64,000 bases of DNA from Vulcanimicrobiota bacterium (GCA_963812155.1 CAWETW010000002.1:128001-192000); one strand, 5' to 3'. Positions 28,187 through 46,703 are shown, numbered from the stretch's first letter. A program made the numbers and translations. The notes: generated by a model from the sequence alone, not told the origin.

Positions 28187-28638
28187 TCGCGTATGACCTC
28201 GTCCATTCGCCCACGCGCGTCGATAAACGTACCGTCCCGCAGCGTGATGGCAAGCATCACGCTATCCGCGGGGAGCTTCTGCGACGAGAACATCATCGTT
28301 TGTGCGTCGTTGGTGTCGTTAAAGTAGATCGTGCCGCTCTTCAAATCGAGCGCGTTGCTCTCGCCGTGCTGCACGAGAGCGGCCGACTTCGGAAAGCACA
28401 CCATGATCTTTCCCTGATAGGAACACGCGGCTCGCGTGACGACGAGTGTCCCGTCGCCGTCGTCGGACGTCAAGAAGAGCGATCCGGAAAAGACCTTGAT
28501 TTCGACGTCGTTATACGAACGCTGCCCGCTGCTTATCCGGTGGATGTTCATCGTTCCGATTGCGCTCGCCGGAGCCGGTACCAGAATGCAGCAGGCCGTC
28601 AATGCCGCCGCTACCACGATCTTTGATAGGAAATCCAA
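28183..28638 (-). CDS. Hypothetical secreted protein
   Basis: Signal peptide; GTGA overlap with the Gly-rich gene. Confidence 0.7.
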   Translation of the reverse strand: MDFLSKIVVAAALTACCILVPAPASAIGTMNIHRISSGQRSYNDVEIKVFSGSLFLTSDDGDGTLVVTRAACSYQGKIMVCFPKSAALVQHGESNALDLKSGTIYFNDTNDAQTMMFSSQKLPADSVMLAITLRDGTFIDARGRMDEVIRE

Positions 28639-28771: not shown

Positions 28772-29722
28772 CTACGCCGACGATGCCATACGGCCAACCC
28801 GAAGCGTCTCATTGCGATCGGTCGAATCGACCCAATCGGTTCCGATGTCTTGCAGTTGTTTGAATTTCCAAGCCGTATCTTCGTCGGCGGGTGCCATCAT
28901 GCGCAAGATCAGGTCCGGCCGAATGGGTGCACTGCAGTTCGTGAAGTACACTGCCAGGCTCCCAACCAGAGGATGGTTTCGAACCGCGACGTTTTCGTCC
29001 ATCGACTCGCCCGCGACAGTCCGCCGGTTCCAAGCTCGTTGAAAGAGCACATGTCCCTTGCTCCGCTCGTAGACGGCGCTTGCGAACGGGCTGGGCCGCC
29101 GCGACGAATGGTTGAGCCGAAGCATTCCCACGGCGCGGAAGACGAACTCTTCCCGCTCGGCGCCAAGAAACGTAATCAAGGCGGGATCGAAGAGGGCGCG
29201 GATGAGCCCGTTACGCTCTACCGGGTGCTCGTGGCGGGTATGACCGTACATCGCATCCGCCAGGGCGTTCCATCGAAGCGGCGTGAGAATTTTATCGGTG
29301 ACCGTCACTGCGACGCCTCGGAGGCTACCCAACAGTGCCGGAAACGACGAGGGAATGGTGGCCTCGGATTCGGCGCCGTCGAAGGGTGATGGGCGCCGTA
29401 GCCCGGCGAGCTCGAGCATGTACTCGAACTCGGCGCTCGATAGCTGCAAAGCCGCGGCGATCCCGATCAAGGTCGATTCAGACGGGTGTATTTCGTCGCC
29501 CGCCTCGACCCGCGCATACCACTTGACGCCGATGTCGGCAAGAAATGCAACTTCTTCCCGGCGCAAACCGGGCGTACGACGGCCGCGGCGGGACACGATG
29601 CCCACTTGTTCGGGGCTAATGGCCTCGCGCCGCTTGCGCAAGAAGCGACCGAGGGCTTGGTGAGCTGTTTCAGTCGTCTCACGGGCCCCGGCTGAGTCAA
29701 AAAGCCGGTCAGGCATAGCCAC
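28772..29722 (-). CDS. XRE HTH + MmyB-like ligand-binding transcriptional regulator
   Basis: LGRFLRKRRE...RRTPGLRREEVAFLADIGVKWY, WNALA, HPLVG. Confidence 0.9.
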   Translation of the reverse strand: MAMPDRLFDSAGARETTETAHQALGRFLRKRREAISPEQVGIVSRRGRRTPGLRREEVAFLADIGVKWYARVEAGDEIHPSESTLIGIAAALQLSSAEFEYMLELAGLRRPSPFDGAESEATIPSSFPALLGSLRGVAVTVTDKILTPLRWNALADAMYGHTRHEHPVERNGLIRALFDPALITFLGAEREEFVFRAVGMLRLNHSSRRPSPFASAVYERSKGHVLFQRAWNRRTVAGESMDENVAVRNHPLVGSLAVYFTNCSAPIRPDLILRMMAPADEDTAWKFKQLQDIGTDWVDSTDRNETLRVGRMASSA

Positions 29723-29920: not shown

Positions 29921-30511
29921 ATGAGCGTTATTGACCTCCAAACGAGGGACGTCACAGCCATCGAGATTGCACTGGATCTGGAAATACCGCGTTTGTTGGA
30001 TTCCTCGCAGTTTTTCTTTTCCGGGCCGTCCGAGCCGCGCATTTGCCTCATCGCGGGTTTTGCTCTCACCGCGCAATTGAAACTCACGGTCGCCGCCGTC
30101 GGCCGGGCGGTGCCGGCGCGAATGCCTTCCCGCGTCCAAGTCACTTTCGCGAATTCGCGCTCGCCGACGCTACCCGGAGCTAGTGGGATCACGATCCAAC
30201 CAATGCTCGCTCTTTTACGTTTGCAATCGAGACTGGTTCGCGCTATCGAACCAGGCTTGGCCAATGAAGTCGTTTCGTTTCGTACGAAGCGCGAGATGGA
30301 AGAAAGCGCCGCGCAGTTCATCAGCGGCTTCATCAATCGCAAGACCCTTCCGACGTTCGAGCCGCCTAGGGCATTCGCCGACTTCGACGCGACGGAGTTG
30401 AACGTAACCGGGCTCACGATTTATCGCTTAGGGCGCGGCGGCGCACCGGAATCGATCCTCGCGCACTGGGCCGGCGTCCAAGTCGCTGCAACGCTCCGGA
30501 ATCCCGACTAA
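29921..30511 (+). CDS. Hypothetical protein resembling a degenerate 2H-phosphoesterase (2'-5' RNA ligase-like)
   Basis: VTAIEIAL, GITIQP...LLRLQ, IYRLG..G pattern recalled from that family; no HxT motifs. Confidence 0.55.
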   Translation: MSVIDLQTRDVTAIEIALDLEIPRLLDSSQFFFSGPSEPRICLIAGFALTAQLKLTVAAVGRAVPARMPSRVQVTFANSRSPTLPGASGITIQPMLALLRLQSRLVRAIEPGLANEVVSFRTKREMEESAAQFISGFINRKTLPTFEPPRAFADFDATELNVTGLTIYRLGRGGAPESILAHWAGVQVAATLRNPD

Positions 30512-30523
30512 AGGAATTACGAC

Positions 30524-31408
30524 ATGCGCGCAATGGCTATTGCTTTCTCAGCGCTGGCGGCCACGGTAATGTACTTTACGACCTGCACCGCTTCAGACGC
30601 TCAGCCTACGCCCGAAAGCACGCCGGATAGCGGCGTAACCTCGCCATCGCCCGCACCTTTGCCGGCTGCCGAGAACTCCGCGGCGCCTCAGACGTCTGCG
30701 TCGCCCCAAAGCTTTGCGGTGCCGACGGAGCCTCCGCTCTACCAAATGAACGACGATATCTTTACGATCGACCGCGACGCGACGCTATTCTACTACTTCC
30801 AAGGAAATAACGATGGAACCGGCAAGGCCAAGTACGAGTTTCGGTACGGCAGAAATCTCTGGAACGACAACGCGCAGATACGGATACGAATTCCAGTCTT
30901 AACGAAGTTTCCGGTCGACGGTGATCCGTATTCGGGGCTCGGCAACATTGAGCTCGGTTATTCGTACAACGTGTCGTCTCCGACGTTCGATCACTCGCTC
31001 GAAATACGCGGCTCGTTTGCGACCGCGGCGAACAACGTGTCCAGCAACGACACGCAGCTTAAGGCGTTCTATACCACCAAGTGGAAATGGAAAGGCGGCT
31101 CGATCGCCTATGCGAACGAGTACGATCAGACCGTCATCCAGCCGCCGGGTTCATCGTACACGAGCTATTACGAAGGTAAGCTCACCCTCCCGGAATATGC
31201 CTTCAAGACGTTGCGCGGACTAAAGTTTTCGGCGTTCTACAACTACCGTGTGCTCTTCGACTCGGGAGGCATTTGGAAGGGCGCGCTTGGCGGCACGATC
31301 TTCGGCAACATGAAAGACGTCGCACTGTCGCTCACCGATTCGTGGGGCATCGGCGACCACGGGCTGTGGAAATACAAGTTCGAAGCCAATGCGACGGCGA
31401 GATTCTAG
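30524..31408 (+). CDS. Putative outer-membrane beta-barrel channel
   Basis: Signal peptide, P/S/T linker, amphipathic aromatic strands, C-terminal Phe (KFEANATARF). Confidence 0.65.
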   Translation: MRAMAIAFSALAATVMYFTTCTASDAQPTPESTPDSGVTSPSPAPLPAAENSAAPQTSASPQSFAVPTEPPLYQMNDDIFTIDRDATLFYYFQGNNDGTGKAKYEFRYGRNLWNDNAQIRIRIPVLTKFPVDGDPYSGLGNIELGYSYNVSSPTFDHSLEIRGSFATAANNVSSNDTQLKAFYTTKWKWKGGSIAYANEYDQTVIQPPGSSYTSYYEGKLTLPEYAFKTLRGLKFSAFYNYRVLFDSGGIWKGALGGTIFGNMKDVALSLTDSWGIGDHGLWKYKFEANATARF

Positions 31409-31447
31409 CATGACGATCGCGATTCACGTGAACGGGCACGTCGCGCA

Positions 31448-33145
31448 ATGATCGCTTGGTTCGTATCCACCCTGCAGCACAACGCGGAGCTCGCAATTTT
31501 TTTAACGCTCGCGATCGGGTATTTGGTCGGGCCGTTAAAAATTGTGGGGTTCAATCTCGGCAACGTGACGACGACCCTGCTCGCCGGCGTGCTCGTCGGT
31601 CAGCTGAATATTCCGATTCCAGGGCCGCTCAAAGCCTTCGTTTTTCTGCTCTTCCTCTTCGCGGTCGGGTATAAGGTTGGGCCGCAGTTTTTCGCCGGAC
31701 TGAGGCGTGACGGCGCTACGCAAATCGTCTTTGCGGTCTTTACGTGTTTGGTGATGCTTGCGATGGTAACGGCGTTTGCCAGCATCGTGCACTTCAACGT
31801 CGGCGAAGCGGCCGGGCTTCTTTCGGGCTCGCTCACGCAGTCGGCAGCCATCGGAACGGCAAGCGACGCGATCGGACGCCTTAGCCTGGATCCCGCGGTC
31901 ACGAAGACGCTGCAAGATCAGATCGCGGTCGGCTACGCCGTTGCCTACGTCATCGCTACCACGACCGGCGTGCTGGTTTGCTCGCGGCTCGTTCCGGCTC
32001 TCTTCCGGTTCGATCTCGCCGAGGAGTCTAAGAAACTTGGCGAGCGGATGGGCTTCAAGCCGGAGGTTCCCGCCGGCGTATTCGGAGCCTACACGGTTAA
32101 CAGCATTCGCGCGATTCGGTTGAACGCCGACGGAATGGCCGGACGAACCGTCGGGCACGTCGAGGACGGTTTCGAGCAGCGTGGCCAACGCGTTTTCGTC
32201 GCGGCGTTTAGACGGGACGATCGGATTACGACCGCTTCCCGAAGTGACGTGCTGCGAGAAGGCGACGTCATTGCGCTGGCGGGGCCGTCTGAAACCGTGA
32301 TTCCGGAAGCCTCCGGAAAGGAAGTGCACGACCCGACACTGCTCGACATACCGCTTGCGCAGCTCGACGTGGTCGTTACAAATCCAGCCTTGGCCGGCCG
32401 TACCGTGGAAGAGATTATGACTGGGCGGGCGCGGGGAGTCGTGCTCAAAAAGATTACCCGCAGTACGCTCGACGTTCCGGTTCTTCCGCGCACGGTGTTC
32501 GAACGGGGTGACACGTTACAGATCGCCGGCTTTCAAGCCAGCGTCGAAGCGGCCGCCAAGGTAATCGGCTACCCGTTGCGGCCATCGGCTTCCGCGGACG
32601 TCGTCTTCGTCGCTACCGCGATCGTCATCGGCGTATTGGTCGGGTCGCTTAGCATCGTCGTCGGCGGCATTCCAATCGGCTTAGGCGGCAGCGTCGGCGC
32701 TCTGGTCGCAGGGCTTGTCGGCGGCTATTTGCGCGCGAGATACCCGACCTTCGGCAACATATCGCCGGGCGCGCAGTGGGCGTTTGACTCGTTTGCGCTC
32801 ACCGTCTTCGTCGCCGTCGTCGGCATTCAGGCCGGTCCGGGCTTCATCGCCGGCATTCAATCCGTCGGCTTGCCGCTCGTCGCCGGCGGCGTTCTGATAC
32901 CCCTCGTTTCGTTGCTGATCGCGGCCGTCTTTGGGAAGTACGCACTGCGGCTCAACAACGTGATACTCTGCGGCGCGCTCGCGGGAGCGGACACCTCGAC
33001 CGCCTCGTTCGGTGCCGTTCAAGATGTTGCCAAGAGCAATCTCGTCACCCTCGGATACACGATAACCTACGCCATCGGCAACGTCTTGTTGACGGTTTGG
33101 GGCACGGTGATCGTCGCAATTTTTGCTCGCAGGACCGCCATTTAA
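31448..33145 (+). CDS. aspT: Aspartate:alanine antiporter (AspT/YidE family)
   Basis: FLFAVGYKVGPQFF, TQSAAIG, central TrkA-C domains, LGYTITYAIGNVLLT; directly upstream of aspD. Confidence 0.92.
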   Translation: MIAWFVSTLQHNAELAIFLTLAIGYLVGPLKIVGFNLGNVTTTLLAGVLVGQLNIPIPGPLKAFVFLLFLFAVGYKVGPQFFAGLRRDGATQIVFAVFTCLVMLAMVTAFASIVHFNVGEAAGLLSGSLTQSAAIGTASDAIGRLSLDPAVTKTLQDQIAVGYAVAYVIATTTGVLVCSRLVPALFRFDLAEESKKLGERMGFKPEVPAGVFGAYTVNSIRAIRLNADGMAGRTVGHVEDGFEQRGQRVFVAAFRRDDRITTASRSDVLREGDVIALAGPSETVIPEASGKEVHDPTLLDIPLAQLDVVVTNPALAGRTVEEIMTGRARGVVLKKITRSTLDVPVLPRTVFERGDTLQIAGFQASVEAAAKVIGYPLRPSASADVVFVATAIVIGVLVGSLSIVVGGIPIGLGGSVGALVAGLVGGYLRARYPTFGNISPGAQWAFDSFALTVFVAVVGIQAGPGFIAGIQSVGLPLVAGGVLIPLVSLLIAAVFGKYALRLNNVILCGALAGADTSTASFGAVQDVAKSNLVTLGYTITYAIGNVLLTVWGTVIVAIFARRTAI

Positions 33146-33157
33146 GGAGTAACCGTC

Positions 33158-34786
33158 ATGGCCACCCAATCGACCGAATCCGATCCTCTCGAACGCTTTC
33201 GCAGGTTTGAGACGCTCAGCCCCTTCGAACTCAAAGACGATCTGATCAAACTTGCAAAGGATCCGGAGAGCGTTCACGTGTTCCTCGATGCGGGGCGCGG
33301 CAATCCAAACTGGATCGCCACGACGCCGCGCGAGGCATACTTTCTCTTTGGACGGTTCGGCATCGAAGAGTCGAAGCGGGTTTGGGACGAGCCCGGCCTC
33401 GGAGGAATGCCCAAGAAAGACGGGATCGGCGCGCGATTCGACGACTTCGTGAAGCGGAACGCGAGCGAGCCGGGCGCGGCCGCGCTCAAAACGAGCGTCG
33501 AGTACGGCGTGCAGAAACTGGGCTTCGACAAGGACGCATGGCTCCACGAACTCGCGGATGCGATCATCGGCGACATGTATCCGGTACCCATGCGCATGGG
33601 CCGCCACATGGAGCAGGTCGTGCGCGCATACCTCGTTCGCGAGATGTGCGGCGACTCGCCGCCTCCAGGCACGTACGACGTCTTTGCGGTCGAAGGCGGA
33701 ACCGCAGCCATGTGCTACATCTTCGACTCGCTGATGGTCAACGGTCTGCTCAAGCGCGGAGACCGAATAGCATTGGCGGTGCCGACCTTCACGCCGTATC
33801 TCGAGATCGCGCATCTCGACAAGTACGCGTTTGAAACCGTGGAAATCGACGCGAGCGGCACGTACGACTCCGGCGCGCATTCGTGGCAATATCCCGACGC
33901 CGAGATCGACAAGCTGCTCGACCCCAAGATCAAGGCCTTCTTCGTAGTCAACCCGAGCAACCCGCCGTCGTACGCACTACAGCGCTCGACGCTCGAGCGC
34001 ATCGCGAGGATCGTGCGCGAGCAACGCAAAGACCTCATCATCATCACCGACGACGTCTATGGCACGTTCGTCGAGGGCTTCGAGTCTCTCATGAAATACG
34101 CGCCCCGCAACACGATCACGGTCTACTCCTACTCGAAATACTTCGGTTGCACCGGCTGGCGTCTCGGCGTCATCGCAATCCATCAAGACAACGTCTTCGA
34201 AGAAATGATCGCAGCGCTGCCCGAGCCGGAGAGGGTCCGCCTACGCAAGCGGTACAGCCCGCTCACGCTCACGCCCGACACGATCAAGTTCATCGACCGC
34301 CTCGTCGCCGACAGCCGTCAAGTCGCACTGAATCATACCGCCGGACTCTCGATGCCGCAGCAGGTGATGATGACCTTCTTCTCGCTCTCGGCCCTCACCG
34401 ACTCGAAGAACGCCTACCGCGACCTCACGCGCCTTATTTGCAAGCGGCGCATGGAACTGCTTTGGAAGGGGTTGAATCTGCCGCTCGTTCCCGACGCGAA
34501 TCGGGCGGACTACTACTCGACCTTGGACCTCATGAAGTGGGCCGAACTCACGTATGGCGATAAATTCATGAAGTTCCTCGTCGACAACTACCACCCGCTG
34601 CAGATCGTTTTTGCGCTGGCGACCTTCCATTCGATCGTGTTGCTCAACGGCAGCGGCTTTGGAGCCCCGGATTGGTCGGTACGCGTCTCGCTGGCAAATC
34701 TACCCGACGAGGCATATGGCGAGATCGGTGCCGATCTCTCCAACGTCGCGCAGACTGCGCTCGAGCGGTGGAAGAGCCAAGGATGA
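33158..34786 (+). CDS. aspD: Aspartate 4-decarboxylase
   Basis: LSPFELKD, AGRGNPNW, EGGTAAM, VNPSNP, TDDVYGTF, PLP Lys in YSYSKYFGCTGWRLG, ALNHTAGLS. Confidence 0.95.
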   Translation: MATQSTESDPLERFRRFETLSPFELKDDLIKLAKDPESVHVFLDAGRGNPNWIATTPREAYFLFGRFGIEESKRVWDEPGLGGMPKKDGIGARFDDFVKRNASEPGAAALKTSVEYGVQKLGFDKDAWLHELADAIIGDMYPVPMRMGRHMEQVVRAYLVREMCGDSPPPGTYDVFAVEGGTAAMCYIFDSLMVNGLLKRGDRIALAVPTFTPYLEIAHLDKYAFETVEIDASGTYDSGAHSWQYPDAEIDKLLDPKIKAFFVVNPSNPPSYALQRSTLERIARIVREQRKDLIIITDDVYGTFVEGFESLMKYAPRNTITVYSYSKYFGCTGWRLGVIAIHQDNVFEEMIAALPEPERVRLRKRYSPLTLTPDTIKFIDRLVADSRQVALNHTAGLSMPQQVMMTFFSLSALTDSKNAYRDLTRLICKRRMELLWKGLNLPLVPDANRADYYSTLDLMKWAELTYGDKFMKFLVDNYHPLQIVFALATFHSIVLLNGSGFGAPDWSVRVSLANLPDEAYGEIGADLSNVAQTALERWKSQG

Positions 34787-35949
34787 TTCGCGTTTTCGCC
34801 GCGGGCCTTCTGCTCGGAGTTTGCGTCGTAACCGCCGGCTGCGGCCACGGCAATGAGGCGAACGAAGCAAACGTCGCGCCCCCGCCGCCGACCGTGGTCG
34901 TGCAGACCGTTCGCCGCGAAACCGTGCCCATCGCCGAAGACTACGAAGGCACCTTCGGATCGGTCGAGAGCGTGGAGATTCGCGCGCGAGTCGAGGGAAC
35001 GCTGGACCGCGCGCCGTTCAAAGAAGGCGACCTCGTGCGTAGAGGCGATCTCGTTTTCGAGATCCAGCAGAACGAGTATATCGCCGCGCTTCGAGCGGCA
35101 CAGGCTCAACGCGCACAAGCGCGCGGGAATCTGTTCGCACGCCAGGCCGCACTCGCACGTGCGAACACGACGGTCGCGCGAAACCGGCCACTTGCCGCCG
35201 ACAGAGCGATACCGCAAAAAGACCTCGACAATGCGATTCAAAACGCCGAAATCGCGAAGGGCGACGTTCTGGTCGCACAGGCCCAGATTGCGTCGGCGCA
35301 GGCTGCCGTCGACAACGCGCAGATCAATCTCGGCTACACGACGATCTACGCGCCGGTGACCGGCTTGATCGGATTCCTCAACTACGACGTCGGCAACGTC
35401 GTCGGCGGACAGGGTACGCAAGTGCTCGACACGATAAACTCGATCGATCCCATCAAAGTCAACTTCGCGTTGGACGAGCCGACGTACTTGGCCTTGTCGC
35501 GCAACCGGACTGACCCCAACGTCAGCGGGCTGAGATCTCAAGAGTTGAGAATCATCTTGGCAAACGACCAGAGCTACGCTTACCCAGGAACGATTTACGC
35601 TTTTAGTCCCACGGTCGACCCGAAGACGGGGACGATCAACGTCGAAGCGAGGTTCCCCAATCCCGAGGGTCTCCTTCGCCCGGGCGGTTTTGCTCGGGTG
35701 CGCGTCGTCGTCGAAAACCGGCGCGATGCGTTGCTCGTACCCCAAACGGCAATCACGAAGTCGCAAGGCGTCGATACGGTCTATGTCGTCAACTCGAAGA
35801 ACGAAGTCGTACTTCGGTCGGTCACACTCGGCACTCAATATAAGCAGTCGTTCGTCGTGAATTCCGGGATCAATTCCGGAGATCGCGTCATCGTCGAGGG
35901 TACGCAGAAAGTGCAACCCGGTGTGAAAGTCACCGTAAAGGGAAAATAG
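34783..35949 (+). CDS. RND periplasmic adaptor (membrane fusion lipoprotein)
   Basis: Lipobox TAGC; EIRARVEG, IYAPVTG, VDPKTGT, FPNPEGLLRPG; ATGA overlap with aspD. Confidence 0.92.
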   Translation: MIRVFAAGLLLGVCVVTAGCGHGNEANEANVAPPPPTVVVQTVRRETVPIAEDYEGTFGSVESVEIRARVEGTLDRAPFKEGDLVRRGDLVFEIQQNEYIAALRAAQAQRAQARGNLFARQAALARANTTVARNRPLAADRAIPQKDLDNAIQNAEIAKGDVLVAQAQIASAQAAVDNAQINLGYTTIYAPVTGLIGFLNYDVGNVVGGQGTQVLDTINSIDPIKVNFALDEPTYLALSRNRTDPNVSGLRSQELRIILANDQSYAYPGTIYAFSPTVDPKTGTINVEARFPNPEGLLRPGGFARVRVVVENRRDALLVPQTAITKSQGVDTVYVVNSKNEVVLRSVTLGTQYKQSFVVNSGINSGDRVIVEGTQKVQPGVKVTVKGK

Positions 35950-35951
35950 CG

Positions 35952-38900
35952 GTGGCACACTTCTTCATAACCCGGCCGATCTTCGCGATCGTCCTATCCA
36001 TCGTGATCGTCATACTGGGGGGCGTCGCGATCCTCGTGCTTCCGGTGGCGCAATTCCCGCCGATCTCGCCGCCCCTCATTCAAGTGCAAACGACCTACAT
36101 CGGTGCGAGCGCTTCGGTCGTGGAGCAATCGGTCGCGTCGGAGATCGAGAACGAGGTCGTCGGCGTCGACAACCTGATTTACATGCAGTCGACCAGCTCG
36201 TCGAGCGGTCAGTATACGCTCAACTGCACGTTCAAAGTCGGTGCGGACATTCAAAAGGCGCTGATCGACGTGCAAAACCGCGTCGGGCAAGCCACCGGAA
36301 AGCTACCCGAATCGGTCAATCGGTTCGGGATCACGGTTCAAAAGAAATCGCCCCAGATCTTGATGGTGCTTGCGCTCTACTCACCAACCAATTCGTACGA
36401 CCGCCTCTTTCTCAGCAACTACATGACGCTCAATCTGATCAACCCGCTGCTCTCCGTTCCGGGCATCGGCGGCGAGAACACCATCGGGGATCAAGACTAC
36501 GCGATGCGCGCCTGGGTGCGCCCCGACCGATTGGCCAAATTTGGTTTGCAAGCGAGCGACCTTGCCGACGCGGTCAGCAAGCAGAACGTGCTGATTCCGA
36601 CGGGTGCCGTCGGCGCGCTGCCGGCTCCGAAGAACAATCAATTCCAACTTTCCGTCAACGCGCAAGGCCGGCTCGTCGATCCCAAGCAGTTCGGAAACGT
36701 CGTCGTCCGCTCCAATCCGGATGGATCGATCTTGCGCTTGCGCGACGTTGCGAGAGTCGAACTGGGCGCACAACTTTATCAGACGCTCGGATCGCTCAAC
36801 GGGCGACCCGCTACCCTCGTAATTCTGTATCAAACTCCCGATGCTAACGCGCTGACGACCGTAAAAGCGATCCGGACGAAAATGGAGGACCTCTCCAAAG
36901 CGTTTCCGCCGAGCTTGAAGTATGCGATCGCCTACGACAGTACGCTCTTCGTCAAGGATTCCATCAAAGACGTCATCAAGACGCTTTTCGAAGCGATCGC
37001 GCTCGTCATCATCGTCGTTTTCATCTTCTTGGGCAGTTTCCGATCTTCGTTCATTCCGATGCTGGCCGTTCCGGTTTCGCTCATCGGAACGTTCATCGCA
37101 TTCCTTCCACTCGGGTTTAGCGTCAACACGCTGACGCTTTTTGGGTTGGTGCTCGCAATCGGCATCGTCGTCGACGATGCGATCGTCGTGGTGGAGGGCG
37201 CCGAGCATCACATCGAAGCGGGGCTCGAGCCGTTGGCAGCCGTCGAAAGGGCGATGAAAGAACTCACCGCGCCGATCCTCGGCATCTCGCTCGTTCTCAC
37301 GTCGGTTTTCTTGCCGTCGGCCTTCATTAGCGGCATCACGGGCCAGCTCTATCGGCAGTTCGCGCTCACCATCACGATTTCGGTCAATCTTTCGGCGATC
37401 GTCGCGCTCACGCTGACGCCGGCACTCTGCGCGATCATTCTTCGCAAGCGAACGCGCATGTGGGGACCTCTTGGATGGTTCATCGACCACTTCAACAACA
37501 TTTTTGGAGCGGTAACGAAGGGCTACATGGGGCTGCTAAACTGGCTCATGCGCCGGGTAATTCTGGTCATTGGATTGCTTGCCGCATTCTACGTGCTCGT
37601 CGCACTGCTCGGCATGAAGCTGCCGGGCGGCTTCGTGCCGGATGAGGATCAAGGCGTCGTCTACGCTTTGGCGCAGCTTCCCTACGGCTCATCGTTGGAT
37701 CGTAACGCCGCAGTCGTCGCTAAGATGGAAAACGATTTGAAGTCGGTTCACGGCGTTGCCGACGTCATCTCGCTTGCCGGTTATAATTTGCTGACGTTCA
37801 TTCAGTCGCCGGACACGTCGAGTTTCATCGTCGTGCTGCATCCTTGGGAGGAACGAACCAAAGAGCACCTGACGCTGCACGATATCGTTGCCCAAATCGG
37901 CCAGAAGATGAACGCCTATCCCCAAGCAGCGTCGTTCACGTTCGTGCCGCCGACGATCCCGGGACTTGGGAACGCGTCGGGCTTCGCCTTCGAGCTACAA
38001 GACACCGGCGGTCACACGGTCGACCAGCTCGCCACCGTTGCGGACAAGGTCGTCGCCGAAGCGCGCAAGCGGCCGGAGCTTACGGCGATCAACAATACGA
38101 TGCGAACTTCGGTCCCGCAGCTCCAGCTCGACGTCAATCGCGACAACGCTGCCACGAGAGGCGTGGCGGTGAGCGACGTTTTCAAGCAGCTGCAGGCGTG
38201 GCTCGGCGGCATGGTCGTTGACGAGTTTACCTACTTCAATCGAACGTGGGACGTGATGATTCAAGCGGAGCCGCAGTATCGTGCGACTCAAAATAGCATC
38301 TCGTCGATTTACGTTCGCAATAACACCGGTCAAATGGTGCCGCTGCGAGCGGTATCGACGGTACGCCGCGGCCTCGGCGCCGATTTCATTCAGCGCTTCA
38401 ACACGAACCGCGAGATCGAGATATTCGGCGCGAATTCCGCGGGGTATAGCACGGGACAGGCAATCGCCGCGATGACCGAGGTCGCGAAAAAGACCGTACC
38501 GGCCGGTTACACGTACGGTTGGTCCGGCACGGCCTACCAAGAAGTCGCCGTCGGCAATACGCAAAACATCATCTTCGCGTTTTCGGTACTGCTCGTCTTC
38601 TTGTCGCTCGCGGCGCAGTATGAAAGCTGGGTGATGCCGCTGGCCGTTCTCCTCGCGGTCCCGACCGGCATCTTCGGCGCGTTTCTTTCGGTGCTCTTGT
38701 GGCGGCTCGATAACAACGTCTACGTGCAAATCGGCATGATTTTGGTGATCGGACTCGCGGCGAAGAACGCCGTGCTGATCGTCGAGTTCGCGCGCGAGCG
38801 GCGCGCCCACGGCGCCTCGATTGCGGAGGCGGCGAGGGACGCGGCTCGCCTGCGCTTCCGGCCGATCCTCATGACGTCATTCGCGTTCATCATCGGCGTC

Positions 38901-39116
38901 ATTCCGTTGATGTTTGCGCACGGTGCCGGCGCGGCATCGAGACACTCGCTAGGCTCGACCGTCTTTGCCGGCATGCTCGCGGCAACGTGTTTCGGCATTT
39001 TCTTCACGCCGTCTCTCTACGAGCTCTTCCAGCGGTTCGCCGAGCGCAAGAAAACCAAGACCAAATCCGACGTGTCGGCGGAAGCCGCGATTCCCCCGAG
39101 CGAAGAACCGGCATGA
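35952..39116 (+). CDS. HAE1/AcrB-type RND permease
   Basis: FFITRPIFA, GIVVDDAIVVVE, GLAAKNAVLIVEF, RFRPILMTS (proton-relay residues present). Confidence 0.95.
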   Translation: MAHFFITRPIFAIVLSIVIVILGGVAILVLPVAQFPPISPPLIQVQTTYIGASASVVEQSVASEIENEVVGVDNLIYMQSTSSSSGQYTLNCTFKVGADIQKALIDVQNRVGQATGKLPESVNRFGITVQKKSPQILMVLALYSPTNSYDRLFLSNYMTLNLINPLLSVPGIGGENTIGDQDYAMRAWVRPDRLAKFGLQASDLADAVSKQNVLIPTGAVGALPAPKNNQFQLSVNAQGRLVDPKQFGNVVVRSNPDGSILRLRDVARVELGAQLYQTLGSLNGRPATLVILYQTPDANALTTVKAIRTKMEDLSKAFPPSLKYAIAYDSTLFVKDSIKDVIKTLFEAIALVIIVVFIFLGSFRSSFIPMLAVPVSLIGTFIAFLPLGFSVNTLTLFGLVLAIGIVVDDAIVVVEGAEHHIEAGLEPLAAVERAMKELTAPILGISLVLTSVFLPSAFISGITGQLYRQFALTITISVNLSAIVALTLTPALCAIILRKRTRMWGPLGWFIDHFNNIFGAVTKGYMGLLNWLMRRVILVIGLLAAFYVLVALLGMKLPGGFVPDEDQGVVYALAQLPYGSSLDRNAAVVAKMENDLKSVHGVADVISLAGYNLLTFIQSPDTSSFIVVLHPWEERTKEHLTLHDIVAQIGQKMNAYPQAASFTFVPPTIPGLGNASGFAFELQDTGGHTVDQLATVADKVVAEARKRPELTAINNTMRTSVPQLQLDVNRDNAATRGVAVSDVFKQLQAWLGGMVVDEFTYFNRTWDVMIQAEPQYRATQNSISSIYVRNNTGQMVPLRAVSTVRRGLGADFIQRFNTNREIEIFGANSAGYSTGQAIAAMTEVAKKTVPAGYTYGWSGTAYQEVAVGNTQNIIFAFSVLLVFLSLAAQYESWVMPLAVLLAVPTGIFGAFLSVLLWRLDNNVYVQIGMILVIGLAAKNAVLIVEFARERRAHGASIAEAARDAARLRFRPILMTSFAFIIGVIPLMFAHGAGAASRHSLGSTVFAGMLAATCFGIFFTPSLYELFQRFAERKKTKTKSDVSAEAAIPPSEEPA

Positions 39117-40549
39117 AATTCGTCGTCGCGCTGATCGCGCTCGTTCAGCTCATCGCATCGTGCGTTCCGCCGACACCGTCGGCCCCGCCGAACGCAGAGA
39201 TGCCGCAGGTGTATCGCGGCGAAGCATCCACGGCTTCGTCGCTGGGCGATCTCCCTTGGCGCAAGTTGTACGAAGACCCGGTGCTGCAGGGACTCATCGA
39301 GAAGGCCCTGGCACGCAACTTCGACGTGGAAATCGCCTACGCGTCGATCCTCGAAGCCGAGGCAACCCTCGGAATCACCGCTGCGAATCAGTCCGTGTTC
39401 GTCAACGGAAATGTCCAGGCACCCTATCAGGCAACGGCCGGTGGGAAACCACCCGGCACTCCCAACTCCGAGTTCTATCCGCAGCTGGGAATCGGGGCGA
39501 GCTATCAGGTCGACCTTTTCGGCAAACTCGCGTCGGCGACGGGCGCTGCGCGCAACCGGCTTCTCTCCACCGATGCAGCAAAAAACACCGTTCTCGCGAC
39601 GGTCGTGGCGCAGGTCGCAAGCGACTATTTTCAGCTGCTCGAACTCGACGACGTTTTGAAGCTCACCCAACGAGCGATACCCGTGCGGCAGGAAAACGTG
39701 CGCCTCATGAAGCTGCGCGTTGAAGGCGGCGAATCCTCGGCGCAAGATTTGAGACAAGCCGAGCAATCGCTCTACGAAGTCACGCAGAACGAACCGACGA
39801 TTCGGCAAAACATCGCAAAAACCGAGAACGCTCTCGCCGTGTTGACCGGCGATTATCCGCACGACATCCAGCGGGGCTTGCCGTTGGAGAAACAGGTGCC
39901 GATGCCGGCGGTTCCGCAAACGGGCGTGACCAGCGAACTACTGCAGCGCCGTCCGGATATCGTTCAGGCCGAATATGCGATCGCCGCGGCGGCCGGCGAC
40001 GTCGACGTCGCGCGCAAGCTGCTCTATCCGTCGCTGACGCTCGGCGCCTCCGCCGCGGCGGCGGGGAGCGTCGTTCACGGCCAATACGCCAACGAGCCGC
40101 CGGCGCTCGAACCGCTGTCGGCCATCAATGGGGTTTTCTACGGGCCGTTCGGTCTCTTTTCGATCGTCGCGCAGCTCCTCCAGCCGATCTTCAACGGCGG
40201 CCAGATCAAATCGCAAATTCACCTGGCGCAGGCGCAACAGCAGCAAATCACGGTCTCGTATCTGCAAACGGTCCACCGCGCTTTCGAAGAAGTCTCCGAC
40301 GACGTCGTTTCCTATAACGAGTCCCGGCTGCGCACCGGACAACTCAAGCTCTATGAGGGTGCTTCTCTCGACTCCGTACGGCTCGCGAACGAGCGCTATG
40401 AAAATGGCTACACCTCGTACCTCGAGGTGCTCGATGCGCAGACGCGCGCCTATCAGGCACAAACCGACGTTGCAGCAGGGCAGCTGAACGAACGTTTGGC
40501 GCTCGTACAGCTCTATCTCGCCCTCGGCGGCGGCTGGCAAACGCAATGA
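39113..40549 (+). CDS. Outer membrane factor (TolC/OprM/NodT family)
   Basis: Lipobox [30 protein letters not shown]. Confidence 0.92.
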
Positions 40550-40577
40550 CACAACTCACGCAACGACAGAGGTGCAC

Positions 40578-42284
40578 ATGGACTGGCTCGTAGCGACTCT
40601 CAAGCAATATCCGGAGATCGCGCTCTTCTTATCGCTCGGCATCGGTTACTGGGTCGGCGGCAAGAGTTTCAAGGGATTCAGCCTCGGCGCCGTCACGGCG
40701 ACGCTGCTTGCCGCGATCGCACTCGGGCAGCTCGGCATCAAGATCTCCGGCGACGTCAAATCCACGTTCTTCCTGATCTTCCTCTTTGCGATCGGTTACG
40801 GCGTCGGACCGCAGTTCATCAGAGGCATCACGAAGGACGGCATTCCGCAAGCGGTCTACGCTGCGATCGTCTGCGTATTCTGTCTGGGCGCATGCGTCAT
40901 CGTTGGGAAAGCCGCAGGTTACGATGCCGGAGCCGCGGCGGGCCTTTTTGCGGGATCTCAAACGATTTCGGCGTCGATGGGGCTGGCGACCGATGCGATC
41001 AACCGGCTCGCGCTCACGCCCGATAAGACGAAGGCGATGCTCGATATCATGCCGACGGCCTATGCCGTCACGTACATTTTCGGCACGGTTGGATCCGCCA
41101 TCGTCATCGCGATGCTCGGACCGATTCTGCTGCGCATCAATCCTCGCAAGGCCTGCAAGGAGTACGAGGCGTTGCATGGCGGCAAACGCGAGTTCGGCGG
41201 CCTCGGCGACGCGTGGCAGGCGTACGACGTGCGCGCTTTCTTGATTGCACCCGACGCGCAAGTCGTCGGCAAGACGGTGAGCGAGACCGAAGCGCTGCTC
41301 ACGGAGGCGACGAAGGCGCTGGGGAACCAGATGTACGTCTTGGCAGTGCGTCGAGGCGGAACGATCTCCGAAGCGACGAGCGACCTCGTTTTGCAGGCCG
41401 GAGACGTCGTATCCGTCGTCGGAGAACGAGATCAGGTGATCGCGCTGCTCGGCTACGCCAGCAAAGAGGTCGACGATCCCGAGCTGATCTCCGCGCCGAT
41501 CGAGGGCGTCGACGTCTACGTCACCAGCAAAGAGGCTGACGGAAAGACGTTGGCAGAACTTGGGGGCCTTCCGGGCGCGCGCGGTGTCTACGTCCGGCGA
41601 ATCAAACGCGGATTTACCGAGACGCCGATTCCCGTGCTCGGCGATACCAAGCTCTATCGAGGCGACGTCGTGACGTTGGTCGGGCGCACGCAGGACACGG
41701 CCGTCGCGGCCGCGGCACTGGGTGTCGTCGATCGCGCCACCGACGTCACCGATGTGGCGTTCATCGGCATCGCGATCACGATCGGCGCGCTGATCGGGGC
41801 GGTCGTCCTGAAAATCGGCGGGGTTCCGATTACGCTCTCGACGGCCGGCGGTGCGCTGATCTTAGGCATCGTCGCAGGATGGTACCGCGCGGTCCGCCCG
41901 ACCTTCGGCCGCATTCCGACGCCGACGTTGTGGTTCATGAACTCCGTCGGCCTCAACATGTTCATCGCGGTCATCGGTCTCACCGCCGGCCCCAAATTCG
42001 TCGCGGGTCTGCAGCAGCTGGGCTTCGGCCTCTTCTTGTGGGGCGTCGTCGCGACGACCGTGCCGCTGATCCTTGGCATGTATCTCGCAAAATACGTCTT
42101 CCGCTTCCACGACGCCATTACGCTCGGCGCGATTTCCGGAGCAAGAACGACGACGGCCTCGCTCGGGATGGTCTGCGACGCCGCGCAAAGCCAGGTCCCC
42201 GGACTCGGCTACACCGTTACCTATGCGGTCGGCAATACGCTACTCACGATTTGGGGCATGTTCATGGTCATGCTCGTGAAATGA
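40578..42284 (+). CDS. aspT: Second AspT/YidE family antiporter paralog
   Basis: [13 protein letters not shown], TrkA-C domains, [18 protein letters not shown]; substrate uncertain. Confidence 0.88.
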
Positions 42285-42335
42285 CCGTGCGCAATTCATT
42301 TCTGCATCTAGTTCTGGTCATGCTGGGACGTTGAC

Positions 42336-45071
42336 ATGAGCAATCTGGAAAAAAACAAAAAAGGCCGGCGGGTAGACGTCTTCTTCGCAACCCCGGGAGC
42401 TCGAGAAGATCGTTGGCGCGATGTCGTCGATGCCGCCAAGAAGTGGGCTGCTGGGACCGGCAGCCGCGCGGAGTTCGAGTCGGCACTGAGCGAAGCAGCC
42501 GTGATCGAAGAGTTTCACGGCTATCCTGGGCCGAGCCTGATGGCGGCGCTACGCGATCGTGCCGAGAGCGATGATTCCACGGGGGCTTCCGCGCTCGCAT
42601 GGCGGATCGCTTCGGCGTTGCTCACGCGCTCGTTTAGGCAGCATGCGTCGGATTGGGATCCGCATGCTGATATCTCGAGCACCGTCCCCGACGTATTGCC
42701 GCCGACGCTAGGGCGGCCCGCGGCCGCGCCTCCGTATTTCGAAGTTCTCATCGTCACGGGAGCGCCGATCGAACGATGGGCGTCGATCGCGGCGGAGTGG
42801 CGCCGGCTGCGCCGTCCTCAAGACGAGTTCGTCTACGAGCCGGTCGTCGTCGGCACCGCCGAGGATGCAGTCTGCGCAACAATGTTGAACGCGGACCTCG
42901 CGGCCGTGGTGATCCACGAGGGTTTTGGATATCGCTCGCGACACGACGCCCCGGTCTTGCGCGGCATCGTCGATCCCGTCGCGAAGGAAGAGCTTTCGGA
43001 CGGATCCGCGCTACGCTTGGCGCGGGTCATTCATCAGGCGCGACCCGAGCTCGATCTCTACCTGCTTTCGGATCGACGCGTCGAGGAGATCGCCGGCGAT
43101 CCGGCAGCCGACATCGTGCGGCGCGTCTTCTACGCCGTCGAGGAGCTGCTCGAACTGCACCTGGCGATACTCGAAGGCGTTGCCGCGCGCTATGAGACGC
43201 CGTTCTTCGATAACTTGAAGAAGTATGCGGAACGCCCGATCACGACGTTTCACGCTCTCCCGATCGCCCGCGGCGCGTCGATTTTCAAGTCGGACTGGAT
43301 CCGGGACATGGGCGAGTTTTACGGCCCGAACCTGTTCCTCGCCGAGAGCAGCGCAACGACCGGCGGTCTCGACAGCATGCTCGAGCCGACGGGCACCATC
43401 AAGCGCGCTCAAGAGATGACGGCTCGCGCGTTCGGCGCCGAGCGCGTATTCTTCGTCACCAACGGGACATCGACCAGCAACAAGATGGTCGTGCAGGCGT
43501 TGCTGTCGCCCGGCGACATCGCGATCGTCGACCGTAACTGCCACAAGTCCCATCACTACGGGATGGTGCTAGCCGGAGCGCAGCCGCTGTACGTCGAGGC
43601 CTTCCCTCTGACCGATTACTCGATGTACGGCGCGGTGCCGCTGCGCACGATTAAACAGGCGCTCCTTACGGCAAAACGCGAGGGGCGGCTCGATCGCGTC
43701 AAGATGGTCGATCTAACCAACTGCACGTTTGACGGCCACATCTACAACACGCGCCAAGTTATGGAAGAGTGTCTGGCGATCAAACCGGACTTGATCTTCC
43801 TGTGGGACGAGGCGTGGTTCGGGTTCGCGCGCTGGTCGCCGTTCCTGCGCCCGCGCACGGGGATGGGCGCCGCAGCCGACATCGAGGAGTGGCTGCGCGA
43901 CCCGGCGAGCGTCGCCGCCTACGAGCGACAGCTCGCCGAGTTGGGGAAGGATCCGTCCGACGAAAAACTGCTCGATACGCGGCTGCTGCCGGATCCCCGC
44001 AAAGTACGGCTTCGCGTCTACCAGACCAACTCCACGCACAAGTCGATGTCGGCGTTGCGGCAAGGGTCGATGATCCTGGTGAAGGACGTGGAGTATCACA
44101 CCGTCGAGCAACAGTTCAAGGAAGCCGTGTTCACGCACGCTTCCACCAGTCCCAACCAGCAGCTGATCGCCAGCCTCGACGTTGCGCGGCGCCAGATGGA
44201 ACTCGAAGGCTTCGGCCTCGTCGCCAATGCGATCGAGATAGCGATGGCGATTCGCCGAGAGGTGAATCGGCATCCGCTGATTTCCAAGTACTTTCGTGTC
44301 GTCGGAGCGGAAGGGATGGTTCCTGCGGAGTACCGCCGGAGCGGCTTCACCGACTTCCTCGCAGCGGATTCGGACTGGGCCAAGATGCGCACGAGCATGC
44401 GGGACGACGAGTTCTGCCTCGATCCTACGCGGATGACGCTCGTTTGCGGCACGTCCGGCTACGACGGAACTCAGTTCAAGAATCTGCTGGCAAACGAGTA
44501 CAACATCCAGCTCAACAAGACGTCGCGCAACAGCGTCTTGCTGCAGTCGAACATCAACAACACGCGCAGCGACGTGGCGCACTTGATCCGGGTCCTCGTC
44601 CAGATAAGCCGTGAGATTGAAGAACGGCTCGCGTCCGGCGGCGAAGGCGAACGTACCGAGTTTGCGGCCCGCGTAAAAAGCTTGATGACGGACGTCCCGG
44701 ATCTGCCGAACTTCAGCTACTTTCACGAAGCGTTTCGACACGATGCGGGGGCCGGGACCAACGAAGGCGACATCCGAACCGGATTCTACGCCGCCTACGA
44801 TGTCGAAGGATGCGACCACATTCCGCTGCACGATAAGGAGATCGATCGCCGCTTGAAGGACGGGCCGCCGCTCGTATCGGCGAATTTCGTCATCCCGTAT
44901 CCGCCCGGCTTCCCGATCATGGTACCAGGCCAAGTCATCACGGCGGACACGATCGACTTCATGCGCAAGCTGGATGTGAAGGAGATTCACGGCTACAATG
45001 CGGCGCAGGGGTTGAAGCTCATTAGCTCCGCCGCGTTGGCGAAGCTCGACCGTCGTAAGGCGCACCGTTAG
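42336..45071 (+). CDS. Large PLP-dependent Orn/Lys/Arg-family amino-acid decarboxylase with N-terminal extension
   Basis: FFVTNGTSTSNK, DRNCHKSHH, NCTFDG, WDEAW, PLP Lys in STHK, STSPNQQ, PYPPGFP. Confidence 0.9.
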   Translation: MSNLEKNKKGRRVDVFFATPGAREDRWRDVVDAAKKWAAGTGSRAEFESALSEAAVIEEFHGYPGPSLMAALRDRAESDDSTGASALAWRIASALLTRSFRQHASDWDPHADISSTVPDVLPPTLGRPAAAPPYFEVLIVTGAPIERWASIAAEWRRLRRPQDEFVYEPVVVGTAEDAVCATMLNADLAAVVIHEGFGYRSRHDAPVLRGIVDPVAKEELSDGSALRLARVIHQARPELDLYLLSDRRVEEIAGDPAADIVRRVFYAVEELLELHLAILEGVAARYETPFFDNLKKYAERPITTFHALPIARGASIFKSDWIRDMGEFYGPNLFLAESSATTGGLDSMLEPTGTIKRAQEMTARAFGAERVFFVTNGTSTSNKMVVQALLSPGDIAIVDRNCHKSHHYGMVLAGAQPLYVEAFPLTDYSMYGAVPLRTIKQALLTAKREGRLDRVKMVDLTNCTFDGHIYNTRQVMEECLAIKPDLIFLWDEAWFGFARWSPFLRPRTGMGAAADIEEWLRDPASVAAYERQLAELGKDPSDEKLLDTRLLPDPRKVRLRVYQTNSTHKSMSALRQGSMILVKDVEYHTVEQQFKEAVFTHASTSPNQQLIASLDVARRQMELEGFGLVANAIEIAMAIRREVNRHPLISKYFRVVGAEGMVPAEYRRSGFTDFLAADSDWAKMRTSMRDDEFCLDPTRMTLVCGTSGYDGTQFKNLLANEYNIQLNKTSRNSVLLQSNINNTRSDVAHLIRVLVQISREIEERLASGGEGERTEFAARVKSLMTDVPDLPNFSYFHEAFRHDAGAGTNEGDIRTGFYAAYDVEGCDHIPLHDKEIDRRLKDGPPLVSANFVIPYPPGFPIMVPGQVITADTIDFMRKLDVKEIHGYNAAQGLKLISSAALAKLDRRKAHR

Positions 45072-45164
45072 GCGCAACGTGGCGCCTGAAAAGGAAGAGC
45101 TGGTCATGTCCTGATCTCTGCGACGTCATCTCAAATCGAGTACCACCGAATCTAACCGTCCTCC

Positions 45165-45854
45165 ATGAAAGAAGGATCACGAATGCAACGCTTGGCTATT
45201 TCGCTCTGCTGTGGACTCGCGCTCTTTGCGACGTCGGCGACGGCCGGCTTGGCCCAGCCCAACGTCTCGGGAACGTGGACGATTCAGCAGTCCGGATTGA
45301 ACGGCACTTCGACTTCGACCGTTACGCTGCACCAATCCGGCAACGGCATCGTCGGAACCAACGCCTCAAACGGAAACGGGTTCACGGGGGAGTTCGCCAC
45401 CAACGACCGGATCGACGCAAAGTGGCACGGTCCCGGCGGCGCGGGTTGGCTGACCGTCTACGTGACCGCAAACGGCCACAGCTTTAACGGCACGTGGGGC
45501 TATAACGGACGTCCTGCCAACGGCTCTTTTGTCGGAAACAAAGTTCTACCGCCGTCGCCGATCTCGGCGGCGGGCACCTGGCACGTTACCGGCGCGGGCG
45601 GTCAGACGAAATTCGTCGGAACGATGAAGTGTACGCAGTCGGGTCCAACCGTCGTCTGCCACGCCACCGATGTCACGTTCAACGGCAAGTTCGTCGCCAA
45701 GGACAAGGTCCGGGCAACGTGGACCGGCGGGGCCAAGTCGGGCTGGTTCTCGTTTTGGTTCAACGGCGACAACAATAGCTTCAATGGTATCTGGGGCAAC
45801 GGAACCGATATGAGTTCGGCGGTCGGCCGCGTCGTGGGTCAACGCTCGCTCTGA
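45165..45854 (+). CDS. Secreted protein with two tandem beta-barrel-like repeats
   Basis: Signal peptide; duplicated GTW...QSG...W.G...GW...SFNG.WG...VG. Confidence 0.75.
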   Translation: MKEGSRMQRLAISLCCGLALFATSATAGLAQPNVSGTWTIQQSGLNGTSTSTVTLHQSGNGIVGTNASNGNGFTGEFATNDRIDAKWHGPGGAGWLTVYVTANGHSFNGTWGYNGRPANGSFVGNKVLPPSPISAAGTWHVTGAGGQTKFVGTMKCTQSGPTVVCHATDVTFNGKFVAKDKVRATWTGGAKSGWFSFWFNGDNNSFNGIWGNGTDMSSAVGRVVGQRSL

Positions 45855-45902: not shown

Positions 45903-46703
45903 ATGGTCGATATTCTCGATCCAATTCCGACGTGGGCGCTCATGCTCGTATCGGTGCTCTTGATCCTCGCCGCAAACGAGGTTGGTTTCCGTCTTGGCCG
46001 AGGCAAGGGGCCGGGACTCGGCGCTCAGGATCCCGCCGCAATCGTGCAGGGAGCAGCGTTCACGGTTTTGGCGCTGCTTCTAGGGTTTTCGTTCGCACTC
46101 GCCCTTGGCCGGTATGACGCTCGGCGCGGCGCTCTCATGCGAGAGGCCAATGCCATCACTACGACGTGGCTGCGGTCGCAACTCCTCGATCCAGCGGACG
46201 CGCGGGCCGTGGGCGCCGATCTTCGCATCTACGTTGCGCAACGCATTGCATTTGCGCGAGCCGAGGCCGACCCCATTCTACGGGCAACCGCCGACGAGAA
46301 GTCGAGGGCGATCCAGCGCAAGCTTTGGCTAGCGACGCTGCAAATCGCGCATCGCGACCCGCATTCCACCATCGTGCCGCTCTTCATCGCGGCGCTCAAC
46401 GATGCCATCAATCTGAGCACCGAGGAACGCGCCGTCCTCACCACTCACATTCCGGACGTCGTAACGATCGGACTGCTATTAATCGCCTTCATCGCAGCGG
46501 CAATGATGGGCTATCGCTTGGGGCGCCAAGGGGAGCGTGCGACGATCTTCAAGGCGTGCTATGCCGTCATGCTGGCCATCACGCTCGGTTTGGTTCTCGA
46601 TTTGGACCGCCCGCAGCGCGGCCTGATCCGAGTCAATCTGACGCCGTTGCAGACCGTCCAAGGCGCCATCGAGGGAACGGCCGCGCAGCCCACTCCACCG
46701 TAA
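45903..46703 (+). CDS. DUF4239/bestrophin-like membrane protein
   Basis: LLLGFSF...RYDARR...EANAI, LDLDRPQRGLIRV. Confidence 0.8.
   Translation: MVDILDPIPTWALMLVSVLLILAANEVGFRLGRGKGPGLGAQDPAAIVQGAAFTVLALLLGFSFALALGRYDARRGALMREANAITTTWLRSQLLDPADARAVGADLRIYVAQRIAFARAEADPILRATADEKSRAIQRKLWLATLQIAHRDPHSTIVPLFIAALNDAINLSTEERAVLTTHIPDVVTIGLLLIAFIAAAMMGYRLGRQGERATIFKACYAVMLAITLGLVLDLDRPQRGLIRVNLTPLQTVQGAIEGTAAQPTPP

Follow-up and report, generated by a model that had tools for sequence, protein, structure and literature searches.

Decarboxylation of aspartate together with electrogenic Asp:Ala exchange consumes protons and generates a proton-motive force, which is shared by the whole membrane. RND pumps of the HAE1 type are drug/H+ antiporters. 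The aspartate cycle is described for T. halophilus, in which a two-gene operon encodes the decarboxylase AspD and the AAE-family exchanger AspT (TC 2.A.81; PDB 8XW5/8Y1X), and AspT/AspD generates proton-motive force according to the accessible portion of that report (PMC12462496). In E. coli, the acid fitness island encodes glutamate decarboxylation and the RND pump MdtEF-TolC together; the available text of one study states that MdtEF pays off only after exposure to pH 2 with bile acids (bioRxiv 10.1101/2020.11.21.392837). A further relevant protein is Rv2531c of M. tuberculosis, a 'cloaked' glutamate decarboxylase (PDB 9N0N/9N0O/9N0P; accessible parts of PMC13506015 and PMC12329521). Here we analyze a 64,000-nucleotide stretch from a soil-dwelling Vulcanimicrobiota bacterium (GCA_963812155.1 CAWETW010000002.1:128001-192000), hereafter the window, in which nine plus-strand genes at 29921-45071 encode a 2H-like protein, an outer-membrane barrel, AspT1, AspD, an RND periplasmic adaptor (MFP), an RND permease, an outer-membrane channel (OMF), AspT2 and a long-form decarboxylase. 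The cluster resembles the T. halophilus cycle in its AspD and two AAE exchangers, all over curated cut-offs; unlike that two-gene operon, it also encodes another decarboxylase, an outer-membrane barrel and a tripartite pump. We hold it to be roughly an even proposition that this is an acid-fitness island, in which aspartate and glutamate decarboxylation with AAE exchange is joined by a co-inherited, likely co-regulated pump whose proton cost is offset. Its parts all come from known families, and it follows the logic of acid resistance by decarboxylase and antiporter; what is new here is the pump linkage, a gadB scar and genomes with a single exchanger. A literature search that lacked most subscription journals and supplements found no published account of this gene combination.

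The intergenic gaps between the nine open reading frames (ORFs) are 12, 39, 12, -4, 2, -4, 22 and 51 nt, the negative values being ATGA overlaps at the aspD/MFP and RND/OMF junctions. The ORF coordinates thus agree with an earlier, sequence-based annotation (the original prediction), which described nine co-oriented genes with small gaps and two such overlaps, and its labels for AspT1, AspT2, AspD, MFP, RND and OMF hold as well, since these six products clear their NCBIfam cut-offs. AspD (33158-34786, plus strand), an aspartate 4-decarboxylase that converts Asp to Ala and CO2, matches the TIGR03801 equivalog over its full length (773 bits against a cut-off of 435). All nine genes are single-copy in the genome at high identity, and every gene compared with five relatives gave a dN/dS of 0.05-0.26, so that no cluster gene is a chance ORF. 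Scans for promoters (1 promoter-like site against 3.7 expected) and terminators (29 terminator-like against 19.5 +/- 4.9 expected) were at chance level and therefore carry no information on co-transcription; we infer that the cluster would form a single transcript.

Within the phylum, aspD is present in 27 of 401 genomes. Matches in 26 genomes other than that of the window comprise 23 belonging to the window's clade and three distant aspD genes with only an AAE gene nearby. The full nine-gene set occurs in 4 of the 23 (in one of them with the genes on two contigs). A stable core is formed by aspD, MFP-RND-OMF, aspT2 and a glutamate decarboxylase gene, usually followed by a bestrophin-like gene. 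These comparisons support a conserved, operon-like unit with two decarboxylases, an outer-membrane barrel and a pump that remains with them within the phylum. The unit also extends beyond 29921-45071, because a divergent MmyB-like regulator gene and two co-oriented 3′ genes travel along in relatives.

The two exchangers differ in their resemblance to T. halophilus AspT. AspT1 (31448-33145, plus strand; TIGR03802, 554 against a cut-off of 547) and AspT2 (40572-42284, plus strand; 632 against 547) are 40% identical, and both have the family layout of duplicated Asp-Al_Ex domains plus TrkA-C domains. The aspartate-binding residues named in the accessible text on T. halophilus AspT are T130, Q131, S132, Y163, Y167, L431, T496, S498 and Y524 (PMC12462496). 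AspT1, an accessory member, keeps eight of these nine (T130, Q131, S132, Y163, Y167, L431, T496 and Y524), S498 being replaced by Thr. AspT2, the core member, retains seven, with Ile for Q131 (I132 in its own numbering) and Thr for S498; in addition, its hairpin carries Arg525 in place of D495 beside T496, and Gly replaces R76, which we take to be an important residue of T. halophilus AspT. A quick tree of the AspT2 clade shows the hairpin Arg in 37 of 37 rows, whatever the neighbor of the gene (only aspD, only the long form, or GadB). Since it is common to all neighbor contexts, the motif is no marker of glutamate specificity, and a glutamate-specific signature in AspT2 was rejected on this ground.

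The original prediction had placed both antiporters at the core of the system, which the comparison does not support: aspT1 adjoins aspD in only 7 of the 23 genomes, survives as a remnant in 2 and is absent from the locus in 14. aspT1 is dispensable, and it is the gene most often lost. By contrast, aspT2 is the only AAE gene found in three genomes that are 93-96% complete (G154, G192 and G215), and no match to GadC at the TIGR00910 cut-off was obtained in the window's genome (G000, 84% complete) or in five relatives tested. Thus, in sole-exchanger genomes without GadC, either AspT2 serves both decarboxylases or the glutamate enzyme works without exchange. AspT2 is accordingly a candidate Asp:Ala and Glu:GABA (γ-aminobutyric acid) exchanger. 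Glutamate decarboxylation without GadC, with the exchanger unidentified, is described for Castellaniella and mycobacteria in the accessible part of PMC12915299; AspT2 provides a concrete candidate for such a role, and the genomes in which a sole AAE gene lies beside both decarboxylases make for a clean test.

The last gene (42336-45071, plus strand) was labeled an Orn/Lys/Arg-type decarboxylase in the original prediction. Its 911-residue product does match PF01276, but at 94-176 bits it falls far below the cut-offs of the LdcC/AdiA/CadA/ODC types (794-1310), and it is longer than the form of about 700-750 residues; it fits a Lys/Orn/Arg (KOR) decarboxylase of the LdcI/LdcC/AdiA/SpeF kind on neither count. 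Instead, the best match is Rv2531c (PDB 9n0o, E 8.5e-222, residues 51-906 aligned), the next family following at E 1.3e-50, and the two proteins share domain order and length class, the long form being one of about 900-950 residues with an additional N-terminal domain. The enzyme is 72-73% identical to Ensifer/Rhizobium members, a group that falls in the Rv2531c cluster in the accessible part of PMC13506015. The same source, as far as accessible, shows by knockout metabolomics and nuclear magnetic resonance that Rv2531c converts Glu to GABA and has no activity on Lys, Orn or Arg; the residues named there are K406, T606, R576, R718 and N731, of which R576 has a role assigned from a model, its mutants being unstable (PMC13506015). 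The window enzyme has identical equivalents in K404, T604, R575 and N727, as well as in the pyridoxal phosphate (PLP) lysine K569 (= K570), and a conservative K715 for R718. An Arg equivalent to R576 is present in 25 of the 25 long-form rows covering the motif and in one of eight short or intermediate homologs. The gene is thus predicted to encode an L-glutamate decarboxylase (Glu to GABA + CO2), and the second loop would use glutamate rather than the basic amino acid originally proposed. As a side observation, the one exceptional homolog (L068, from G016), a distant (28%) OKR-family protein that has the R576-equivalent Arg lacking in the other seven, is possibly a further enzyme for an acidic substrate.

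The association of the long form with exchangers extends beyond the phylum. An AAE gene adjoins it in 15 of 15 plasmid matches above 60%, mostly from related rhizobia. Close AAE relatives were found in two other phyla (8 of 401 genomes in one, 1 of 301 in the other), and the long form lies beside the AAE gene in five of these nine (G790, G794, G451, G646 and G812).

In the 23 genomes with a window-clade aspD, the slot 3′ of aspT2 holds the long form in 11 and a canonical GadB in 4, is empty in 1 and lies off the contig in 7; the slot GadB passes TIGR01788 (516 against 380 bits). The window locus has no intact canonical GadA/B, only a scar of the gadB 3′ end: 37 nt (45078-45114, plus strand) encode VAPEKEELVMS-stop, to be compared with HAIEKEELVMA-stop at the end of the L013 GadB. 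Downstream of the long-form gene, before the next ORF begins, gadB remnants amount to a decayed stretch of about 300 nt in L005, a shorter one in L002 and about 37 nt in L085, as in the window; L015 has none. Relative to the window, the dS of the long-form gene is 0.20-0.25 in L005, L018, L016 and L002, where that of RND is 0.64, 1.10, 1.23 and 0.64, respectively; in L015 the values are 0.44 and 1.02. The lower dS of the long-form gene implies that it likely entered after its neighbors had diverged. Together, scar and divergence suggest that the long-form enzyme likely displaced gadB in place. That two unrelated enzymes alternate in one slot fits a fixed function, namely glutamate decarboxylation. 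A separate canonical gadB is present elsewhere in the genome (G000 C5:7958-9244, minus strand; TIGR01788, 629 against 380 bits), 42% identical to the L013 GadB.

These observations bear on a metabolic interpretation, in which Asp and Glu are taken up through the exchangers, AspD supplies alanine and pyruvate, the long form feeds a GABA shunt under ligand-sensing control by the MmyB-like protein, and selection is not imposed by acid. In its favor, MLTR regulators bind small molecules, and the genome encodes class III aminotransferases, though none over the GabT cut-off. Rv2531c itself acts in the GABA shunt at neutral pH (accessible part of PMC13506015). However, exchange exports the product instead of retaining it, the cluster is without a GABA-shunt gene, a comparable locus from another lineage (L103, below) adds amidase-like genes typical of acid resistance, and the slot formerly held GadB, an enzyme described as acid-activated in the available text of PMC12329521. 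We therefore consider a purely catabolic unit improbable. Whereas Rv2531c is a GABA-shunt enzyme, the window gene follows an AAE exchanger in a former gadB slot. The long-form family was assigned in 2026, to the GABA shunt only as far as the accessible text of PMC13506015 goes; the in-place replacement of GadB supplies genomic evidence that the long form can also serve in an antiport-coupled, likely acid-defense role.

The pump genes lie between aspD and aspT2. They encode the adaptor, which has a lipoprotein signal (34783-35949, plus strand, overlapping aspD; TIGR01730, 245 against 95), the HAE1-type permease (35952-39116, plus strand; NF000282, 1261 against 1250; TIGR00915, 1107 against 940) and a NodT-type outer-membrane efflux channel (39113-40549, plus strand, overlapping RND; TIGR01845, 248 against 210). 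The order MFP-RND-OMF, the cut-offs passed and the intact proton-relay motifs (D408, D409, K938 and R970) are those of HAE1 pumps of the OqxB/CmeB/BpeF type, unlike whose operons this one is embedded between a decarboxylase and an exchanger gene. The roles of the relay residues are known from AcrB. Best matches to solved structures have E 6e-274 to 4e-273, CmeB among them, and the closest relatives are in records titled Eremiobacterota/Vulcanimicrobiota. The pump genes are under purifying selection.

The pump (adaptor or RND) adjoins aspD in 20 of the 23 genomes, and the other three reach a contig edge on the pump side; none of the 20 informative genomes kept the decarboxylases and lost the pump. 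In a search of 300 genomes of the family, RNDs of at least 80% identity were found in 12, in all 12 at such loci. The linkage persists in several genera and in two families, even at loci where an inversion has left aspD and the barrel gene pointing away from the pump genes (L019, L020, L032 and L086). Losses of the core have removed pump and decarboxylases jointly (G103, G153 and G145). By contrast, none of 23 inspected sister RNDs (from 24 at 48-74% identity) has aspD, an AAE gene or either glutamate decarboxylase within about 8 kb. In a FastTree phylogeny made without frameshifted and partial rows, the linked RNDs form one clade of 17 rows (support 100, one of them on a contig too short to show its neighbors), nested among the unlinked sisters. 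The pump linkage is thus a single capture event within Eremiobacterota. The nearest unlinked sister pumps (72-74%; L027-L030 and L033) are followed by a beta-propeller/phosphoesterase-like gene, and in the L028 pump the first relay Asp is replaced by Asn.

Such a history could also have left a passenger: a multidrug RND operon inserted once between aspD and aspT2, inherited with the block and kept for an efflux role of its own. This is what the nesting of the linked clade among sisters beside unrelated genes would look like, and the joint losses of pump and decarboxylases can each be one block deletion. Cores without a pump are the rule elsewhere (9 of 9 genomes sampled from the two other phyla; seven of the eight inspected plasmid records). 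Nor is the pump adapted in its charge: adaptation to acid was rejected, as periplasmic net charge and pI fail to separate 17 linked from 20 unlinked RNDs. Yet the genes around the pump (aspT1, the 2H-like gene, the barrel gene and the glutamate decarboxylase gene) were repeatedly lost or swapped, while not one of the 20 loci lost the pump and kept the decarboxylases. In addition, unrelated RNDs lie near such cores in L103, L080 and L142, and E. coli has the same pairing. We regard a passenger pump as rather unlikely. As an observation in its own right, RND residues H953 and H990 are invariant in the 17 linked proteins and absent from the 20 unlinked ones, which may reflect pH-sensitive positions or just clade history.

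Beyond the phylum, no decarboxylase, exchanger and RND gene occurred together within about 9 kb in any of the nine exchanger-bearing genomes (from 702). The expectation that the pump is conserved with aspT/aspD is thus borne out within the phylum (20 of 23) but for the most part not outside it (0 of 9). One of eight plasmid records opened has an RND gene, unrelated and divergent (L080), and in L142, from one of the nine genomes, an RND gene lies beside an AAE gene; both of these RNDs, near AAE-decarboxylase cores, fall outside the window's RND clade. Nine longer loci from metagenomes, none of the window's close clade, include one (L103, from another lineage) with adaptor and RND in the run. 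There, 10001-21692 reads aspT-aspD-gad-asparaginase-like-glutaminase-like-porin-like-second AAE gene-MFP-RND start, with ORFs called by eye, and no GadC-like gene was seen in the fetched stretch. This order is the layout of an acid-resistance island.

The original prediction went further, proposing that the decarboxylation loops power the pump or that the pump exports a product. The overlaps of the translational-coupling type tie aspD to the adaptor, AspT/AspD generates proton-motive force (accessible part of PMC12462496), and the pump's proton relay is intact. Against these stand several observations. Nothing seen points to a physical complex, without which a delocalized proton-motive force allows no dedicated coupling. 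In the inverted layout aspD is transcribed away from the pump, and both pumpless cores and coreless sister pumps are common. The RND pocket segment matches that of unlinked sisters in hydrophobicity and would thus poorly suit Ala or GABA; export of the products is already provided by the exchangers. Nothing tested points to loops dedicated to the pump or to product export, and we judge either very improbable. What endures of the integrated acid-resistance or energy module then suggested is a conserved operon-like unit, for which acid resistance is the best reading; there is no sign of direct energy coupling.

As an acid-fitness island, the cluster would work as follows. At low external pH, Asp and Glu, which may cross the outer membrane through the barrel, would be exchanged in; AspD would convert Asp to Ala and the long-form enzyme Glu to GABA, each using one cytoplasmic proton; and the AAE exchangers would swap substrate for product, so that Ala and GABA leave the cell. 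The co-regulated RND pump would clear amphiphiles or permeant weak acids, its proton influx being offset by the decarboxylases. Pump and loops would thus be linked by shared regulation and proton economy, not by a private energy supply. Glutamate as substrate, Glu:GABA exchange by AspT2, acid induction and the cargo of the pump are predictions from sequence. The best reading is that the cluster would be an analog, not a homolog, of the E. coli Gad/MdtEF island. Unlike the latter, it has no GadC, and no GadE/X/W or Hde chaperone among its genes; it has its own outer-membrane channel for the pump and an extra aspartate loop; and its RND is not an MdtF ortholog (768 bits, the best solved match reaching 915). 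The phylum is taken to be acid-tolerant on the basis of one paper title and an available passage of PMC11437008 on acidic springs and peatlands.

Several points weigh against the acid-fitness interpretation. Because there was a single capture, the linkage counts lack independence and could result from block inheritance. Periplasmic net charge is -5.6 in linked against -4.2 and -7.8 in unlinked RNDs, with no acid shift. The binding motif of AspT2 does not differ between genes beside aspD alone and those beside glutamate decarboxylases, so that a plain Asp:Ala exchanger fits equally well, and the window's genome carries the separate gadB outside the cluster. The cluster is also patchy, with the long-form gene in one of 40 close relatives (a set that includes G036, without an ortholog). 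GABA synthesis can protect from acid without an antiporter, according to the accessible text of PMC12915299. The M. tuberculosis long-form enzyme feeds the GABA shunt and has a K0.5 of 509 mM at pH 7.3, and the main text of PMC13506015, as far as accessible, mentions neither an antiporter nor 'neighborhood'.

Should the pump have been co-selected, the E. coli-type pairing of Gad and an RND pump would have two separate origins from different parts, a point relevant to the reason for the pairing. A wider synthesis is possible but doubtful: AspT2 would found an AAE subfamily for Asp:Ala and Glu:GABA exchange that replaces GadC across soil bacteria, the long form would be sweeping such operons by displacing gadB, and Eremiobacterota would have independently built a Gad/MdtEF-like island with an acid-dedicated pump. 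The significance is bounded by the facts that the parts are known and that the pump was linked only once, in a single phylum, with no sign of coupling.

The genes at the 5′ end are less firmly attached. The divergent MmyB-like regulator (28772-29722, minus strand) has an XRE helix-turn-helix domain and an MLTR ligand-binding domain (PF17765, E 1.5e-18; PF13560), is preceded by a sigma-70-like site (29777-29749, minus strand) and lies beside the 2H-like gene in relatives; judged by its domains, it is likely a small-molecule-sensing regulator of the cluster. The adjoining gene (29921-30511, plus strand) encodes a degenerate 2H-phosphoesterase-like protein that has no Pfam match of its own and no Atlas cluster match. 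The original 2H-like label is right, as a profile search reaches PF13563 members (8 of 26 distant proteins scanned match it), but both HxT His residues are replaced in the window protein and neither position has an invariant His in 41 aligned members, whereas the distant PF13563 proteins retain them. With both HxT motifs lost, the protein is predicted to be non-catalytic.

The next gene (30524-31408, plus strand) encodes an outer-membrane beta-barrel with a signal peptide and a terminal Phe, without a Pfam match and with unnamed Atlas clusters. An alignment-based AlphaFold model (pLDDT 93, pTM 0.86; a single-sequence fold reached only pLDDT 36) is 12-stranded, and in Foldseek it matches FapF (PDB 5O65; E 9e-9, TM-score about 0.7) and the COG4313 channel 4rl8 (TM-score 0.70) at only about 10% identity, in line with the barrel label given before. 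In other lineages this position is taken by porins of unrelated kinds, general or DcaP-like, which would fit an entry route for amino acids. The barrel is not as fully integrated as had been supposed, because the regulator-2H-barrel-aspT1 block lies apart from aspD in G187 (L155) and G388 (L156), aspT1 being frameshift-split in both assemblies. The 2H-like and MmyB-like genes are also absent from inverted and GadB-type loci.

On the 3′ side, a loosely attached gene (45165-45854, plus strand) encodes a secreted protein without a Pfam or NCBIfam match; it is present in many relatives' loci and has paralogs elsewhere in the genome. The membrane protein with a bestrophin-like domain (45903-46703, plus strand; PF14023, 47.9 against 32) is usually the last of the cluster; its gene also occurs without the core, and a homolog lies beside aspT and gad in Cupriavidus L081.

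The cluster sits in a variable region of 28.1 kb (about 18613-46720); in the congener G001, the flanks of this region enclose a different set of genes, 7.6 kb in length. Its right edge is marked by a tRNA gene with a CAT anticodon (46724-46798, minus strand; ARAGORN), in a flank shared with G001. Integration targeted to this tRNA was rejected, there being no tRNA-end repeat in the window and no tRNA in 19 other cluster loci, and no integrase was recognized by eye among the ORFs of 15-52 kb. GC content of the cluster genes is 0.57-0.63, slightly under the 0.64 of the genome. An empty-site derivative (L178 of G153, 6995-10614) retains the regulator, 2H-like and barrel genes, the first 39 codons of aspT1 and the bestrophin-like gene, the whole core being deleted. 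Upstream, 20227-28638 encodes a MarC-like protein (by eye), membrane proteins, a pyridine nucleotide-disulphide oxidoreductase, a DyP-like protein and a Gly-rich protein; these accessory genes recur beside the cluster or the empty site in several relatives and look like a larger mobile gene pool. A catalase-peroxidase-like gene (by eye; 50024-52231, minus strand) lies in the conserved right flank.

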